Shown piece after piece: positions 13,253 through 35,461 of a stretch of DNA of 64,000 nucleotides. The notes beneath the pieces were generated by a model. The model was not told the DNA's origin and did no database searches. It saw only the letters and a list, made by a program, of their open reading frames with translations. This DNA is from a virus. The DNA lies in the IMG/VR virus record IMGVR_UViG_3300047557_002951, positions 95,557 to 159,556 of that record, one strand, 5' to 3'. Positions within the stretch are counted from its first letter, which is position 1. Each line of letters starts with the position of its first letter. Both the position numbers and the translations under genes were made by a program.

Positions 13253-13585
13253 ATGAAGGAAGAAGACCTCAACCAAGAAAACAATTCCCAGAAATCATTA
13301 GATTCATCCGAAGACCAGCCAAAAGAGGTAGGAAAAAAGCAAAGTTCATTATTGAATAAACTTATCTTTATTATCTGTTGTTCTGTGATTGGATTTGTTG
13401 GAATCAATTTTATTGCATGTAACTTTATGGTTCCTGGAACAATTAGTAGAGCAAATGTTCTTGGAGGATTAAAAAACCCTCCTCCTTTAGATTGCAAAGA
13501 ATCTGAAAGAAGAGGGTATGAAACTTTATTAACTATTCTTACTACAGTAATTGCATTAAGAACACGAGTTGAAGATAGTGATTAA
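13253..13585 (+). CDS. membrane protein
   Basis: Hydrophobic segment LIFIICCSVIGFVGINFIAC and C-terminal hydrophobic helix. Confidence 0.6.
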   Translation: MKEEDLNQENNSQKSLDSSEDQPKEVGKKQSSLLNKLIFIICCSVIGFVGINFIACNFMVPGTISRANVLGGLKNPPPLDCKESERRGYETLLTILTTVIALRTRVEDSD

Positions 13586-14139
13586 ATAACCTCACAACAT
13601 CTCTTATAATACTTCTCACGATCAGCAAGTCCATTTGCTGGATCTCTGCCATTAACTCTTGCTGATACCTGACGACAAGTAGCACCAGAATCACAAAGTT
13701 CATTCATCTTATTTGTCATCCACCAGAAACCAGAAATTGTGAATGGATAATTCTCTGCAACATAATTTACTCCATTCATTACATTAGGATCTTTAATATA
13801 ATTCGCAAACTGCTGATAATTATATCTCCCAGTTACCTGAATAAATCCAGCGCCTTTATATCTTGGCCCATCACCATTTTGAGTGTTTCCAAGATCTTTT
13901 CTTCCTTCATAATCAGCGCCAGAAGCAAGTTCTTTCATCCAACGACCACCATTACTCTCATGAGAACATTGAGCGAGAAAATGGCGAATTCTTACTTTTG
14001 TTGTAATGCTGAATGTAGTCAAACACTTATGAAGTTCCTGCACTTCCTTATCTTTGATTAAAGATTCTGCACAGTTCCAGATATAAGCAAGTTGTTTTTT
14101 TGTTGGTAAGGCACCACCTTGTGATGGTGCCTCTTCTAC
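13582..14139 (-). CDS. GH19 (chitinase/lysozyme-like) lysin domain, probably made as a -1 frameshift extension
   Basis: FLAQCSHES, YEGRKDLGN, RYKGAGFIQVTGRYNY, NGLADR; frame is open back to the slippery site; no well-spaced RBS. Confidence 0.85.
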   Translation of the reverse strand, partial: VEEAPSQGGALPTKKQLAYIWNCAESLIKDKEVQELHKCLTTFSITTKVRIRHFLAQCSHESNGGRWMKELASGADYEGRKDLGNTQNGDGPRYKGAGFIQVTGRYNYQQFANYIKDPNVMNGVNYVAENYPFTISGFWWMTNKMNELCDSGATCRQVSARVNGRDPANGLADREKYYKRCCEVI

Positions 14140-14852
14140 TTTTTTACTGGTTCAAAGATTCTGCCCCATCCATCATTGGGATGCTTTACTGTCCATCGTC
14201 TTTCTAGCATCCGTTTAGCATAAACAACTCTTTTCCCATTGGATACTGGACCAGAATACCCATCCAAAATTGAACCATATGGATCACTTACAATATAGTT
14301 TCCACTTTCGTTTTTCCCATGTACACAAATCATATGACCAGTTCCAGTAGGAGATAACTCTGGACCACGATGAAGAATTCCAATCACAACTGGACGACCA
14401 GCAGAAAGTTCTCGATCTAAATCATCAAATCCTAAATTATAATGAAACTTAGAGTCTAATCCATAAGACTTCAATACTCTCGTTTGAACATCATGATCTG
14501 TCGAATTCCCTTGTGCTAAAACTTTTCTAAGATAGGCATCATCACCTTTTGTCCCTGATGGTAATGATCCTGGCTTCAAATACTCAAGACACATTGCACA
14601 AGCAGATGAATTGCAAGTAGAATCTGGTAGTTGATAGTTATCTGTTTGTGGATAGAATGGTACATCCAAAAGAATTCCTTTTAAGTCCTGTGAGATATTT
14701 TGTGATCTATAGATTCTTATCCAGTTAGATGTGTCATCTAATAACTCTGGAACTTTTTCTGCCAATAGTCGTTCAAAATCATCTATTGCTGCACGATGCT
14801 TTGGATTCTTGTCGTCGTAGTACTTGAAAAAATTGTTTAAATCTACTCTCAT
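14136..14852 (-). CDS. peptidase C39-like (papain-fold) protein
   Basis: VPFYPQ, CNSSACAM catalytic Cys, GHMICV His, DPYG. Confidence 0.85.
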   Translation of the reverse strand: MRVDLNNFFKYYDDKNPKHRAAIDDFERLLAEKVPELLDDTSNWIRIYRSQNISQDLKGILLDVPFYPQTDNYQLPDSTCNSSACAMCLEYLKPGSLPSGTKGDDAYLRKVLAQGNSTDHDVQTRVLKSYGLDSKFHYNLGFDDLDRELSAGRPVVIGILHRGPELSPTGTGHMICVHGKNESGNYIVSDPYGSILDGYSGPVSNGKRVVYAKRMLERRWTVKHPNDGWGRIFEPVKK

Positions 14853-14854
14853 TT

Positions 14855-15013
14855 TCAATACCTGAATTCTTCTAATCTATCTAGGAGTTCATTCAAATGT
14901 TTATGTGCCAGTGATTTGGGATCACTTGTATAATATGGTTCAGTTGAAACCTTATGTTTTTGCTTCAAAATTAAAACTTTAATCTCATCTTTCGTGATGT
15001 GATTTCTTGGCAT
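14855..15013 (-). CDS. hypothetical protein (52 aa)
   Basis: MPRNHITKDEIK...EEFRY between late promoter and peptidase. Confidence 0.55.
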   Translation of the reverse strand: MPRNHITKDEIKVLILKQKHKVSTEPYYTSDPKSLAHKHLNELLDRLEEFRY

Positions 15014-15017
15014 ATAC

Positions 15018-15052
15018 AAAAAAACTCTACCACCTATTTAGTGGTAGAGTTT
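15018..15052 (-). terminator. terminator with a late promoter (CTAAATA) in its loop
   Basis: AAACTCTACCAC-TAAATAG-GTGGTAGAGTTTTTTT. Confidence 0.75.
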
Positions 15053-15348: not shown

Positions 15349-15639
15349 TCACAGATTTTCTTCCTGTTCAGTGAGAATCACGCAATCACTAGTTGGATAT
15401 GCCGTACAGGTAAGAATAAACCCATCAGCGAGTTGATCATCATCAAGAAAGGTTTGATCCTCATTATCCACTGTACCAGAAACAAGTTTACCAGTACAAG
15501 CAGAACAAGCACCAGCACGACAAGAAGAAGGCAGATCGATTCCTGCCTCTTCAGCAGCGTCTAGAATATATTGATCTTCAGGGCACTCAAAAGTACTCTC
15601 AGTGCCGTCAGGAGATTGTAGAGTAATAGTATAATTCAT
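15349..15639 (-). CDS. petF: plant-type 2Fe-2S ferredoxin
   Basis: CRAGACSAC...ILTC. Confidence 0.96.
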
Positions 15640-15725
15640 TCGTAAGTTTTTGATAGTTGATTTACAGAGTGTGCTAGCAGTACAAAGAATGCAATACTAG
15701 TTACGGTAAAGATAACTTCAGTCAT
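15636..15725 (-). CDS. small membrane peptide
   Basis: [29 protein letters not shown], coupled on both sides. Confidence 0.5.
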
Positions 15726-15934
15726 CAAAAGATACCAAAGAAAAGTTTGCCAGTGAGAGCATAAGAAATGATACCAGAAACGATACCAATCATTGCCCAA
15801 CGAGAATTCGCTTTTTCTGCCTTTACAGCATAAGGTTCAAAACCATAACGCTCAATATCTTCTTTAGACATCCACATTGTTGGTTCTTTGGCAAACATAT
15901 TCATTTGGCCAAATTCATTTTTTGTAACGGTCAT
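15725..15934 (-). CDS. hli: high-light-inducible protein
   Basis: AEKANSRWAMIG motif; NMFAKEP N-terminal extension. Confidence 0.88.
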   Translation of the reverse strand: MTVTKNEFGQMNMFAKEPTMWMSKEDIERYGFEPYAVKAEKANSRWAMIGIVSGIISYALTGKLFFGIF

Positions 15935-32269: not shown

Positions 32270-32286
32270 AAATTAGAGTTTTATGA

Positions 32287-32362
32287 TCCGGATATTCAGA
32301 TTTGAACTGAAATTATTCCTGCTCCCAAAGCAGGTGCCATGACCAAGTTAGGCGATATCCGG
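32287..32362 (-). tRNA. trnP: tRNA-Pro(UGG)
   Basis: Cloverleaf; anticodon arm CCTGC-TTTGGGA-GCAGG. Confidence 0.9.
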
Positions 32363-32723
32363 ATGTTAATGTATATAGTACCACAAGAACCCAGAATCGT
32401 CAAGCATCTTCTTCATCCTCATATGAACTGGGTTCTTCGAAGAGTTCCACCATTTTCAATTGTAAAACTCTTTCTTGTAATTTTTCTAAGTCTTGTTCAG
32501 TAATTTCGCTCATCACCTAAAAATTTTGCCAATGGATCTTTTTTCGTTTTTACGATTTCACATGCTCTTTTGTAAAACATATTATCTAAGTTCCCAGAAG
32601 CCTCAAAAGTTTCTTTTATCTTAACCCAATTACTATAGGTTCGGTCGTCCATTGAGGCACTCCTGCATATTGATACTAATTATAATCTGCAGGATTTTTA
32701 TGTCAATCTCATGTTAGCGAATC

Positions 32724-33095
32724 TTAATATCCATGATTCATGATTGTCTTTGTGTATTTTCTTAAGATCTCGCCAGCCCTTGAATTTGCCTCATTCTCAC
32801 ATTCACTGCCAGTATCTCCACTCATTTCTTTACCACTTTGTTTTTGATGATAATGAACTAACTCATGAGCAAGAGTCCTATAAACATCTAATGGATGTCT
32901 TTTTGCAGTCTGGACTTTAATTTCATCTGTACCTAAATTAAAACAGCCAAAAGTTTTATTGTCGATAGAAAACTGTGGGTCATCTATAACAACAACTTTA
33001 GGTAAGTTTGTTAGGCCAAGTTCATCCTTTACAAAGTTCATAAAGTCCTTAACCTGGACTTTCTTTGATTCATTTAGAAACTCTCTAAATCTCAT
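32724..33095 (-). CDS. HEXXH zinc metallopeptidase-like late protein
   Basis: TLAHELVH...ENEAN; N-terminus MRFREFLNE. Confidence 0.75.
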   Translation of the reverse strand: MRFREFLNESKKVQVKDFMNFVKDELGLTNLPKVVVIDDPQFSIDNKTFGCFNLGTDEIKVQTAKRHPLDVYRTLAHELVHYHQKQSGKEMSGDTGSECENEANSRAGEILRKYTKTIMNHGY

Positions 33096-33110
33096 GAGTT
33101 TTTTATATAT

Positions 33111-33362
33111 TTATCGAACTTCAAAATCAAGTTTGCGAACTTTGCGTTGTCGTCTTTCTTCTTGCCAGCGAATATCTTCATTTGTCAGAACTCTATTTGA
33201 TTCTTTCTGAACATAAGAATTTAACATGACTATCTTAGATAAATCCATGGCAGATATTTTGTCACCTTTAATGGTTGCCATGTTGAGACAGCCGCAAGAT
33301 CTGGATTGGCCTGGATGCCCAATCACCTCAGTATTGCATTCTTTGCATCTTATTTTTAGCAT
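33111..33362 (-). CDS. Zn-ribbon hypothetical protein
   Basis: CKEC...CGC. Confidence 0.65.
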   Translation of the reverse strand: MLKIRCKECNTEVIGHPGQSRSCGCLNMATIKGDKISAMDLSKIVMLNSYVQKESNRVLTNEDIRWQEERRQRKVRKLDFEVR

Positions 33363-33440
33363 TTTGATTCATAATGTGTATTTGGATCTTATTATTTATC
33401 ATTAAAAAACTCACCTTCTCCACAAGAAGGTGAGTAAAAA

Positions 33441-33511
33441 AGCGGATGATCGGTTCTGCCCCGACGACCTCTGGGTGGAAACCAGAAATTATACTATTTA
33501 ACTACATCCGC
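33441..33511 (-). tRNA. trnG: tRNA-Gly(UCC), atypical T-loop
   Basis: Acceptor GCGGATG/CATCCGC; arm TCTGG-TTTCCAC-CCAGA; T-loop GGCAGAA. Confidence 0.75.
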
Positions 33512-33770
33512 AGTAATAAGGTAATTATACCCTATTTATGATCTTATGTCAAGAGTTTTTTGATACTACTTCAAGATCAGTTCCAATGGCACGAAGCCAG
33601 GTGTTTAGATTTTCCATAAGAAATTCATCTGATGGATTCTCGAAGTTAATACGAATGTCACGGATGGTATCATGATTTTCGTTTCGTGCGGAGTATCCTA
33701 GGTCGTATGAGATGTTCATTTGGGTCTTATATGTTGTTGGAGTTATTATAGCATGTTTGTTGGGGGTTTG

Positions 33771-34730
33771 TCAAGTACTCCACAAATCTTTGGCGTGAAT
33801 TTCGCGGTGACAATTACTACAAACTATTATGCAGTTTTCCAGTTCTTTCTTTTGGCGTTCAAATCCCCAATAACAAAATCGTCTAGAATATGTTGGAGAT
33901 TTTTTACTTGGATCTACATGATGAAACTCTAATGAATTGATGCATTGATCATATCCACACACAGAACAACAACCACCCATATATTCAACTGATTTTTCTT
34001 TTCCCTTTATTCCCCTCTCAACAAAATTTTTACTATCACAAGATTTGCATGTTTTACTATGAGTCCCAGATCCGGTATTTTCTTCTGTGAGAACTATATC
34101 ACATTGTTTACAAGAATTTTTTCCAGTATTTCTACCAGTAAAGATAACATCCGAAAGATTATTCACTAGATTAGCCGAAAATTCTTTTTCTAGTTTCTTC
34201 CTTTTGTTAATTATATTATGTTCTTCTCGGTGGCAATTAGAACAAAGTAAAACACATTTATTCAGTTCATTTCTAATCGTATCCCAAGTCTTATTCATCA
34301 TTTTTGATGGATTAAATTCTTTTTCTTTCGGGTTCAAATGATGAAAATCTAGGGCAGTTAAATTTTTGTCATATCCACATTTTTGACATTGATTTCCTTT
34401 ATACTCTACGCACTTTTGCTTAAAAAACAATCTTTTGTTTAGAGTATTATTGCAATAGCAAGATTTACAGTACGAAGAATAAGTATTTTTATTTTTTCTA
34501 TCATATGCATTTTCTGGAGTTAACTTTGCATTACAAGAACAACAGTATTGATTATTTTTATCTACTCTTTTTGGATAATTATAACCCTGCGTAAAAGATT
34601 TATTTTTAGTTTTTAGATTAAATTTCTTTAACCAGTATCTTATAGTCGTTTGTCCCTTATTAAAATAAAGAGCTAATTCTCTCATGGACATACCTTGTTC
34701 CACAAGAGACGCTAGTAGGTCTCTATTCAA
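33771..34730 (-). CDS. free-standing endonuclease with N-terminal HTH and two tandem HNH domains
   Basis: Two copies of CxxCGYD...L(D/E)FHH..P...ELxxCxxxCSNCHRExH; HTH GMSMRELA...TIRYWL. Confidence 0.85.
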   Translation of the reverse strand: MNRDLLASLVEQGMSMRELALYFNKGQTTIRYWLKKFNLKTKNKSFTQGYNYPKRVDKNNQYCCSCNAKLTPENAYDRKNKNTYSSYCKSCYCNNTLNKRLFFKQKCVEYKGNQCQKCGYDKNLTALDFHHLNPKEKEFNPSKMMNKTWDTIRNELNKCVLLCSNCHREEHNIINKRKKLEKEFSANLVNNLSDVIFTGRNTGKNSCKQCDIVLTEENTGSGTHSKTCKSCDSKNFVERGIKGKEKSVEYMGGCCSVCGYDQCINSLEFHHVDPSKKSPTYSRRFCYWGFERQKKELENCIIVCSNCHREIHAKDLWST

Positions 34731-34743
34731 TTCTTATTCTCCG

Positions 34744-34837
34744 TAGTTGATTGGCATTATTATTTATACAAGAAAAGGAGCATTTCTGCTCCTTTTCCAC
34801 CTTAAAGACGCCAATCAACTAAGGCATTTTTATTTAG
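34744..34837 (-). ncRNA. late promoter / small RNA / terminator / late promoter cassette, copy 2
   Basis: Shares scaffold with 17243-17340; see findings. Confidence 0.6.
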
Positions 34838-34847
34838 TTGTTTTCAA

Positions 34848-34920
34848 CAGGCGCATCTGGATTCGAACCAGAGATGAGGAGGTAGAAGCTCCTAGTGATA
34901 ATCCACTTCACCATGCGCCC
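34848..34920 (-). tRNA. trnR: tRNA-Arg(UCU)
   Basis: Arm AGGAG-CTTCTAC-CTCCT; GGTTCGAATCC. Confidence 0.92.
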
Positions 34921-34961
34921 ATAACAAGACAATCATAACATATTTATGTCATATTGTCAAG

Positions 34962-35241
34962 TCCGGAATGACAGATTCGAACTGTCCCTTGAGCGATTTT
35001 CTTACCACTATAGTTTTCACTACCAATCATAAGATCGTTTGTGGTCTGGACTTTCTCTTTTCCATATCCATAAGGACTTAGGAACCACCTTTTAAGTCTC
35101 TACACCTTCATCTTACGATGCTTGGCTCGGGATTGCCATTTTAAAGGTTTCCCCGAATTTAAGTGGATTCACACACAGAGTTTCCAACTGTGGTGCTCAA
35201 ATTATTTAAGTCGCTTGCCTCTTCCGCTGGGCTAATTCCGG
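34962..35241 (-). tRNA. trnL: tRNA-Leu(UAA), intron-containing (exons 35241-35208 and 35000-34962)
   Basis: Spliced arm AGCGA-CTT/AAAA-TCGCT; acceptor CCGGAAT/ATTCCGG. Confidence 0.88.
35001..35207 (-). ncRNA. group I intron of the trnL(UAA) type (207 nt)
   Basis: Starts AAATAATTTGAGC after U34; core AAATTCGGGGAAACC, GGCAATCCCGAGCC, GTGTAGAGACTT, AAGAGAAAGTCC; ends in G. Confidence 0.9.
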
Positions 35242-35268
35242 AAGTATAAGACTCATAAAAGAGTCTAG

Positions 35269-35340
35269 TGGTTCTGCAGAGAATTGAACTCTGTTCACAG
35301 CTTTATAAGAACTGGGCCTTAACCAATAGGCGACAGAACC
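35269..35340 (-). tRNA. trnI: tRNA-Ile(UAU)
   Basis: Arm CAGTT-CTTATAA-AGCTG; acceptor GGTTCTG/CAGAACC. Confidence 0.85.
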
Positions 35341-35379
35341 AATAAGACAATCGTACCACATAAGAAGTAGATTGTCAAG

Positions 35380-35461
35380 TCCTCGTTTTCAGATTTGAAC
35401 TGAAACTCCGTTAGGAAACGGTTTTTGAGACCGTCGCGGCTACCGATTACGCCAAACGAGG
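35380..35461 (-). tRNA. trnL: tRNA-Leu(CAA)
   Basis: Arm ACGGT-CTCAAAA-ACCGT with variable arm. Confidence 0.9.

Follow-up and report, generated by a model that had tools for sequence, protein, structure and literature searches.

The 64,000 nucleotides of DNA considered here (positions 95,557 to 159,556 of the IMG/VR virus record IMGVR_UViG_3300047557_002951; in the following, the window) are part of a 159.6-kb viral contig from an uncultured T4-like cyanophage, the nearest cultured relative of which is the freshwater cyanomyovirus S-SRM01. They contain a lysin locus in which an open reading frame (ORF) for a cysteine peptidase runs into a stop codon and a complete GH19 muramidase/chitinase-like domain continues in the −1 frame without a usable start codon. 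From comparison of the sequences we consider it highly probable that the two frames are connected by a programmed −1 ribosomal frameshift of the dnaX/IS3 type, which would yield a peptidase of 238 aa as well as a fusion of this peptidase with GH19 of 423 aa, and that the GH19 domain is very probably made only by ribosomes slipping back one base at the heptamer A_AAA_AAG. Three features characteristic of dnaX/IS3-type signals are found: the heptamer in the proper register, a conserved downstream structure, and a downstream frame that is start-less yet constrained. All coordinates of the locus are in window numbering, and peptidase, heptamer, hairpin and GH19 domain are encoded on the minus strand (Table 1).

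Anatomy of the junction

The peptidase ORF ends with GTA AAA AAG TAG and overlaps with the −1 frame by 13 nt only, and it is inside these 13 nt that the heptamer is found. A first-pass annotation of the window, made from the letters alone, had described this ORF end, the heptamer, a hairpin of 11 bp at a distance of 5 nt and a −1 frame reading on into GH19, all of which holds at the level of the individual bases. Its two products of about 238 and 423 aa agree with the ORF arithmetic, which predicts 238 + 185 = 423 aa for the slip product. The hairpin has a minimum free energy of −19.6 kcal/mol versus −9.5 ± 2.9 kcal/mol for dinucleotide shuffles (z = −3.45; 2 of 200 shuffles equal it). A heptamer A_AAA_AAG by itself is not above chance, there being 50 copies in the window versus 46 ± 6 expected. 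Chance does not account for the register of the heptamer within those 13 nt or for a hairpin 5 nt away, and least of all for the fact that relatives have kept the entire arrangement. On the plus strand of 13582–14852 only ORFs of 47–60 aa are present.

Table 1. Coordinates of the elements of the lysin locus (window numbering).
Feature	Position	Strand	Description	Basis
Zero-frame ORF, short product	14136–14852	−	ATG 14852, TAG 14138–14136, 238 aa; N-terminal domain of ~55 aa and Peptidase_C39_2-like cysteine peptidase	
N-terminal domain (FFKYY...YR)	14690–14852	−		BLASTP and alignment
TGA closing the −1 frame upstream	14152–14154	−		Three-frame translation
Slippery heptamer A_AAA_AAG	14139–14145	−	X_XXY_YYZ register of the peptidase frame	
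Zero-frame stop TAG	14136–14138	−	Directly 3′ of the heptamer	Sequence
Spacer between heptamer and hairpin	14138–14134	−	5 nt	Sequence
Putative stimulatory stem-loop	14108–14133	−	11 bp including G.U pairs, loop ACAA	Folding
−1 frame ORF without usable start	13582–14151	−	12-residue linker, then complete GH19 muramidase/chitinase-like domain; TAA 13584–13582	

Start codons in the GH19 frame

Between the upstream TGA and the first conserved GH19 helix the GH19 frame of the window contains no ATG, GTG or TTG. The sole candidate start is GTG 14043, 32 codons past the slip point, and independent initiation at this codon had been named in the first-pass annotation as an outcome that would overturn its proposal. 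Phage homologues align (tblastn) from residue 12–14 of the −1 piece and a solved stand-alone GH19 endolysin aligns over query residues 14–182, in both cases from about 20 residues upstream of GTG 14043. In the closest relatives, the metagenomic loci L107 and L111, the codon is GTA, and their first canonical start in the GH19 frame falls after the SHES catalytic motif. Initiation at GTG 14043 was rejected because the codon is not conserved and about 20 aligned residues would be lost. Since the codon lies late, is GTA in L107 and L111 and is preceded by residues to which homologues align, independent initiation is, as judged from these alignments, not a conserved route to GH19.

The frame break in the nearest relatives

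IMG/VR and JGI metagenome contigs were scanned with a pattern for the junction of the window, six or seven As being allowed. Six As followed by TAG were found upstream of GH19 in six other metagenomic contigs (L107, L111, L102, L106, L108 and L109; L102 is the same contig as L098). Seven As, which yield an in-frame fusion, were found in one lineage represented in two samples (L096/L101/L110 and L097/L104). In the GH19 ORF of the window and L107 the synonymous divergence (dS) is 0.37 and the ratio of nonsynonymous to synonymous divergence (dN/dS) is 0.047, heptamer, stop and stem being identical; among the lineages with six As the dN/dS of the GH19 ORF is 0.13–0.20 at a dS of 0.9–1.8. With dN/dS values of 0.05–0.20 across lineages all of which have the frame break, purifying selection by this measure acts on the GH19 ORF although it has no start.

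One explanation of the frame break would be that a true seven-A fusion like L096/L097 has lost one base, either by an assembly error or by recent inactivation. Homopolymers are prone to insertions and deletions, and the nearest GH19 relatives are indeed seven-A fusions in two samples. However, six As with TAG recur upstream of GH19 in the six contigs mentioned above, the six-A allele is present in 46 of the 80 relatives that are more distant, and among the six-A lineages the stem shows compensatory changes. Because the frame break has been kept over long divergence (dS 0.37–1.8) while GH19 stayed constrained, an assembly error or a pseudogene is rejected, and for an assembly error the independent contigs lead to the same verdict. 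The suspicion, raised in the first-pass annotation, that the reads might show seven As is thus answered by six independent contigs, and we consider artefact or decay very improbable.

Junctions in the wider family

With the peptidase as query, 215 relatives were found in IMG/VR. The best 80 were kept, and their junctions were classified without presupposing a heptamer. In 41 of these 80, A_AAA_AAG is followed after 0–1 codon by a zero-frame stop, and a GH24 lysozyme lies in the −1 frame without any start codon at the junction; another 5 differ from these in a TTG, GTG or ATG that overlaps with the stop. Only 2 are in-frame fusions. In 17 there is no heptamer and the lysozyme, which carries an extra N-terminal domain of ~45 aa, is initiated separately, an ATG overlapping the stop in 15 of them; in the remaining 15 the peptidase stands alone. 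None of the 80 loci has the lysozyme in the +1 frame. All 46 relatives in which the lysozyme domain lies in the −1 frame at most ~50 nt from the peptidase stop have the heptamer, which is absent wherever the lysozyme has its own ATG and N-terminal domain, and the start-less lysozymes are without that extra domain. The expectation of the first-pass annotation that homologues would keep heptamer, stop and a covarying hairpin is thereby borne out for 46 of the 80 relatives, nearly all of which also have the stem, and for the cultured phage S-PM2.

Of the 49 unique six-A junctions, 40 have the stop immediately after the heptamer and 9 after one further codon. In the rest of these peptidase ORFs the dipeptide K-K is encoded by AAA AAG in only 4 of 18 cases, and A-ending codons for Val, Ala and Thr make up 27–40% of their codon families. 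The loci L014 and L015 have the heptamer, stop and stem of the window nearly base for base and yet lead into GH24. Read from these junctions, the cassette is modular and serves different catalytic domains (GH19 and GH24).

The survey also bears on the question whether GH19 could be translated alone, be it from GTG 14043, from a non-canonical codon or by termination-reinitiation at the TAG, peptidase and GH19 then being two coupled genes. Two-gene layouts do exist in S-SRM01, in S-CREM2 and in the 17 loci mentioned above, an ATG, GTG or TTG overlaps the stop beside the heptamer in 5 loci, and both loci in which this is an ATG (S-SRM01 and L046) have lost the hairpin. On the other hand, each separately initiated lysozyme has the extra N-terminal domain that the start-less ones are without, no start codon is available in the window before the first GH19 helix, and GTG 14043 has the shortcomings described in the preceding section. 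We regard translation of GH19 on its own as distinctly unlikely.

Conservation and covariation of the stem-loop

In nearly all of 45 unique junctions the stem starts 2–8 nt after the heptamer. At least five unrelated stem sequences are found, each with arms complementary to their own partner: duplexes between own 5′ and 3′ arms have a mean of −15.9 kcal/mol versus −8.8 kcal/mol for foreign arms, and 0 of 10000 permutations reach the observed value. In the GH24 lineages the 3′ arm lies within the G-V/I-D/E codons that immediately precede the conserved L-I-K-E-F-E-G, and the 5′ arm, located in the linker, is matched to the particular codons in use there. The largest stem family comprises 20 sequences. 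In these, 98.5% of the cells pair and five pairs are changed on both sides; slid controls pair in 30–51% of the cells, and 0 of 500 shuffles reach the observed pairing. In the window-type cassette 94.8% of the cells are paired versus 39–56% with the partner slid. At one of its pairs the C-G of the window is replaced by U.G in L102/L106 and by U-A in L108, and another has changed from C-G to U-A. Many relatives have loops of 16–35 nt.

Of 49 junctions, 47 fold better than sequences resampled synonymously in the −1 frame, a conservative comparison because the null sequences were based on codon usage in the region itself. S-SRM01 and L046, which do not, are precisely the two in which an ATG overlaps the stop and the hairpin is lost. 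For the window alone the result of this test is weak (z = −1.3; 10% of the resamplings are as stable), and the argument is therefore carried by the family-wide sign (47 of 49) and by the covariation tests.

The position and covariation of the stem are also of importance in deciding whether it is the ribosome that slips. Alternatively, the RNA polymerase could add an A on the run of six As, so that a fraction of the mRNAs would be in-frame. The break does lie in a homopolymer, natural seven-A alleles exist (L052 and L096/L097), and in the cultured phage S-CAM7 there is a run of eight Ts, eight bases being a length at which polymerase slippage becomes plausible. Six As are, however, short for efficient polymerase slippage. 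Moreover, the X_XXY_YYZ register of the run and the G at its end are invariable, the zero-frame stop is held within one codon, and a covarying stem lies 2–8 nt downstream in 47 of 49 junctions; a polymerase needs neither the register nor the stem. Transcriptional slippage is therefore, in our opinion, unlikely.

Cultured phages and in-frame fusions

The gene p156 of S-PM2 ends with GCA AAA AAG TAA, after which a stem and, in the −1 frame, a complete GH24 domain follow. This arrangement is present in the record from 2005 and in an independently sequenced deletion mutant. The annotation of both records (L003 and L112, p156-p157) is limited to a "putative lysin" of 72 aa that begins at an internal ATG. 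In S-CAM7 (L092, gp247-gp246) the A-run is replaced by GTT TTT TTT, another slippery sequence within an unchanged architecture: stop, stem and start-less −1 lysozyme are kept, and the −1 frame is open through the full GH24 domain, beginning where the upstream peptidase gene ends. The public annotations of the lysozymes of these two phages are thus of a "putative lysin" of 72–90 aa from an internal ATG, and a joined coding sequence is annotated in none of the records inspected.

Other cyanophages encode single ORFs of 405–432 aa, namely S-H34 (gp235), S-N03 (gp238), MA01, S-B68, B3 (gp326) and ACG-2014f (gp209). These in-frame fusions, with the exception of B3, are colinear with the predicted slip product of the window, linker length included; the N-terminal half of B3 has no tblastn match to the peptidase. 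Plain in-frame fusions among the homologues had been given in the first-pass annotation as evidence that would speak against a frameshift. Such fusions are found in S-H34, S-N03, MA01, S-B68, B3 and L096/L097, but not in the 46 of 80 relatives with heptamer and stop nor in S-PM2. Judged by their sequences, the in-frame fusions indicate that the fusion is a working protein and the form that the long product takes, and they do not refute the frameshift. In the S-H34 group there is no slippery heptamer at the junction, and only the long form is therefore expected. L052 and L096/L097 are seven-A versions of the slip-type junction in which the stem is kept. Finally, L013 (2705–2790) and ACG-2014f_Syn7803C8 (L093, ~1885–1930) are in-frame peptidase-GH24 fusions that keep A_AAA_AAG and the stem. 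In these the −1 frame reads K-K-V-stop, which is the dnaX layout, and a slip would yield the short form.

Observations that weigh against a frameshift

Several observations do not fit easily with a frameshift in the window. The closest GH19 relatives, L096 and L097, are 90% identical in GH19 and are plain seven-A fusions. The number of As, six or seven, thus changes easily in evolution, and an error in any one contig is conceivable. In some members of the family, the five heptamer loci with a start codon overlapping the stop, coupled reinitiation is, to judge from the junctions, in use. Furthermore, a Shine-Dalgarno-like stimulator upstream of the heptamer, which is a feature of dnaX although not a universal one, appears to be missing: no conserved purine-rich element was found in the 80 junctions, where the 10–20 nt upstream of the heptamer encode G-R-I/L/V-F-D/E with synonymous sites that vary. 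The assignment of the signal to the dnaX/IS3 type thus stands with respect to heptamer, structure and dependent frame, but not with respect to this upstream element.

Lastly, a consensus scan scores 14109–14132 on the plus strand as terminator-like, with the tail CTTCTACTTT, from which it could be argued that the hairpin has been kept as an intrinsic terminator of plus-strand (antisense) transcription and that its adjacency to the A-run is incidental. But the site is ~520 nt beyond the end of the only convergent plus-strand ORF, the loops of 16–35 nt in many relatives are unlike those of intrinsic terminators, and in S-CAM7, where the stem is associated with a T-run on the sense strand, there is no U-tract on the antisense strand. 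The frame register, the stop and the start-less ORF would also be left without explanation. We consider this possibility extremely unlikely as the reason for the conservation of the hairpin; the frameshift hairpin may nevertheless have a second role against antisense transcription. No alternative discussed in this and the preceding sections accounts at the same time for the register, the stop, the covariation of the stem and a constrained ORF that has no start.

Domain assignments

The first ORF matches Pfam Peptidase_C39_2 (PF13529) with 43.4 bits versus a cutoff of 24 (residues 62–192, full profile 1–143) and PHROG 3617 and 10051 (endolysin) with E values of 1e-80 or better. A sequence search with the peptidase against solved structures found no relative. 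The Cys in T-C-N/F-S-S and the His in G-x-G-H, candidates for the catalytic residues, are invariant in the peptidase alignment. With respect to PHROG 10051 it may be mentioned that its domain order is reversed, as it is in L090 (S-CREM1) and L095 (PSS2), in which the peptidase homology is C-terminal in ORFs of 393–408 aa annotated as lysozyme.

The match of the second ORF to Pfam Glyco_hydro_19 (PF00182) has 24.8 bits, slightly below the cutoff of 25.5. However, phmmer finds solved GH19 endolysins with E values of 1.6e-24 and 3.3e-19, the latter covering residues 14–182, and PHROG 181 (endolysin) is matched with an E value of 1e-35. The GH19 assignment is secured by these matches to solved GH19 endolysins and by the PHROG endolysin families.

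The N-terminal domain of the peptidase ORF is related to the N-terminus of the GH19 lysozyme of S-CREM2 (BLASTP E value 1e-7), whereas BLASTP gave no match with the N-terminal domain of the separately encoded lysozyme of L016. Where the lysozyme is a separate gene, the domain is thus seen by alignment to sit on the lysozyme instead, but because L016 has no match and that of S-CREM2 is significant, such a copy on an unlinked lysozyme is shown only for the S-CREM2/S-B68 type.

Proposed mechanism and comparison with known systems

Ribosomes translating the peptidase ORF would reach A_AAA_AAG and pause there owing to the stem-loop 5 nt downstream and the adjacent TAG. A fraction would terminate and release the 238-aa protein composed of N-terminal domain and C39_2-like peptidase. 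In the remainder, the two lysine tRNAs would re-pair one base back, and translation would continue through the 12-residue linker into GH19 to give the 423-aa fusion; GH19 would have no other route of expression. Slippage of the ribosome, with a certain efficiency and a certain ratio of the two products, is what we infer from this arrangement. Both products would presumably act in lysis, the peptidase on the peptide stems and GH19 on the glycan strands of the cell wall.

In the case of dnaX from Escherichia coli, which encodes tau and gamma, a −1 frameshift occurs at A_AAA_AAG with a stem-loop ~5–6 nt downstream and helped by an upstream Shine-Dalgarno-like element; the slip truncates the product to gamma. 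The lysin locus has the identical heptamer, a downstream stem-loop and two predicted products with a common N-terminus. It differs from dnaX in that the slip would extend the protein into a second catalytic domain and in that the Shine-Dalgarno-like element is not conserved. The dnaX layout itself, an in-frame fusion with a slip to a stop, is seen in the relatives L013 and ACG-2014f.

To our knowledge, the known cases of programmed frameshifting in phages chiefly concern tail chaperones and capsid proteins. In lambda and most long-tailed phages a −1 frameshift generates the tail assembly chaperones G and GT and is thought to fix the ratio of the two. As in G/GT, a short and a C-terminally extended product would be made from one phage locus by a −1 frameshift, but here the product is a lysis enzyme, the genomic position is another one and the extension is an enzyme domain. 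With the in-frame endolysin fusions of cyanophages the locus shares the order N-terminal domain, peptidase, linker and lysozyme; they differ in being one ORF without a frame break. Two products from one lysin locus are also known from Lys170, CTP1L and CD27L, where two isoforms arise via an internal in-frame start and share the C-terminal wall-binding domain. In the window the isoforms would share the N-terminus and would arise by recoding rather than by a second initiation, and a conserved internal start of the Lys170/CTP1L type was not found. In full-text searches of the literature, no programmed frameshift was found described for a phage lysis enzyme, be it a cyanophage lysin or any other endolysin.

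The different layouts of the family could be taken to mean that the junction is an evolutionary toggle, with both isoforms always being made in a ratio that can be inverted, one-base insertions or deletions in or near the A-run switching between layouts. One layout, slip to extend, would be that with six As and a stop (the window, S-PM2 and most relatives); the other, slip to truncate, would be the in-frame fusion with K-K-V-stop in the −1 frame (L013, ACG-2014f), heptamer and stem being kept in both. Short and long forms might assemble via the shared N-terminal domain to a heteromeric lysin with a stoichiometry set by recoding, the glycosidases being interchangeable. We offer this picture tentatively and with considerable doubt.

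Genes around the locus

A 54-aa ORF (14855–15019, minus strand) adjoins the start of the peptidase ORF, and just upstream of it is a strong terminator-like hairpin of 13 bp followed by a T-run (15022–15052, minus strand). The lysin transcription unit probably begins near this hairpin and the 54-aa ORF. Just upstream of the unit, a plant-type ferredoxin-like ORF (15349–15639) and a small high-light-inducible-like ORF (15725–15934) were recognized by eye, both on the minus strand. Ferredoxin and high-light-inducible genes are typical auxiliary genes of cyanophages.

On the other side, a convergent 110-aa ORF with one hydrophobic segment (13253–13585, plus strand) ends exactly at the end of the GH19 ORF. 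It has no match in PHROG. Downstream of the lysozyme of many related loci, conservation of its reverse-strand translation is evident by inspection. The ORF may encode a lysis-associated membrane protein. Farther away (32285–35461, minus strand) there are four tRNA genes, for Pro (TGG), Arg (TCT), Ile (TAT) and Leu (CAA); a gene for tRNA-Lys is not present in the window.

Significance

As presently annotated, the main lysozyme appears fragmentary or missing in S-PM2, in S-CAM7 and in dozens of uncultured cyanomyoviruses. Read with the slip, these phages and their uncultured relatives would have a complete two-enzyme endolysin. With the cassette, a bacterial −1 stimulator also becomes available in many covarying versions, from viruses of marine and freshwater picocyanobacteria, hosts in which, as far as we know, there has been little work on frameshifting. 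Nature offers five arrangements of the two enzymes, namely slip-dependent fusion, plain fusion, fusion with a slip to a stop, two coupled genes and peptidase alone, and with this set for comparison the value of a fixed ratio of short to long product to the phage is directly testable.

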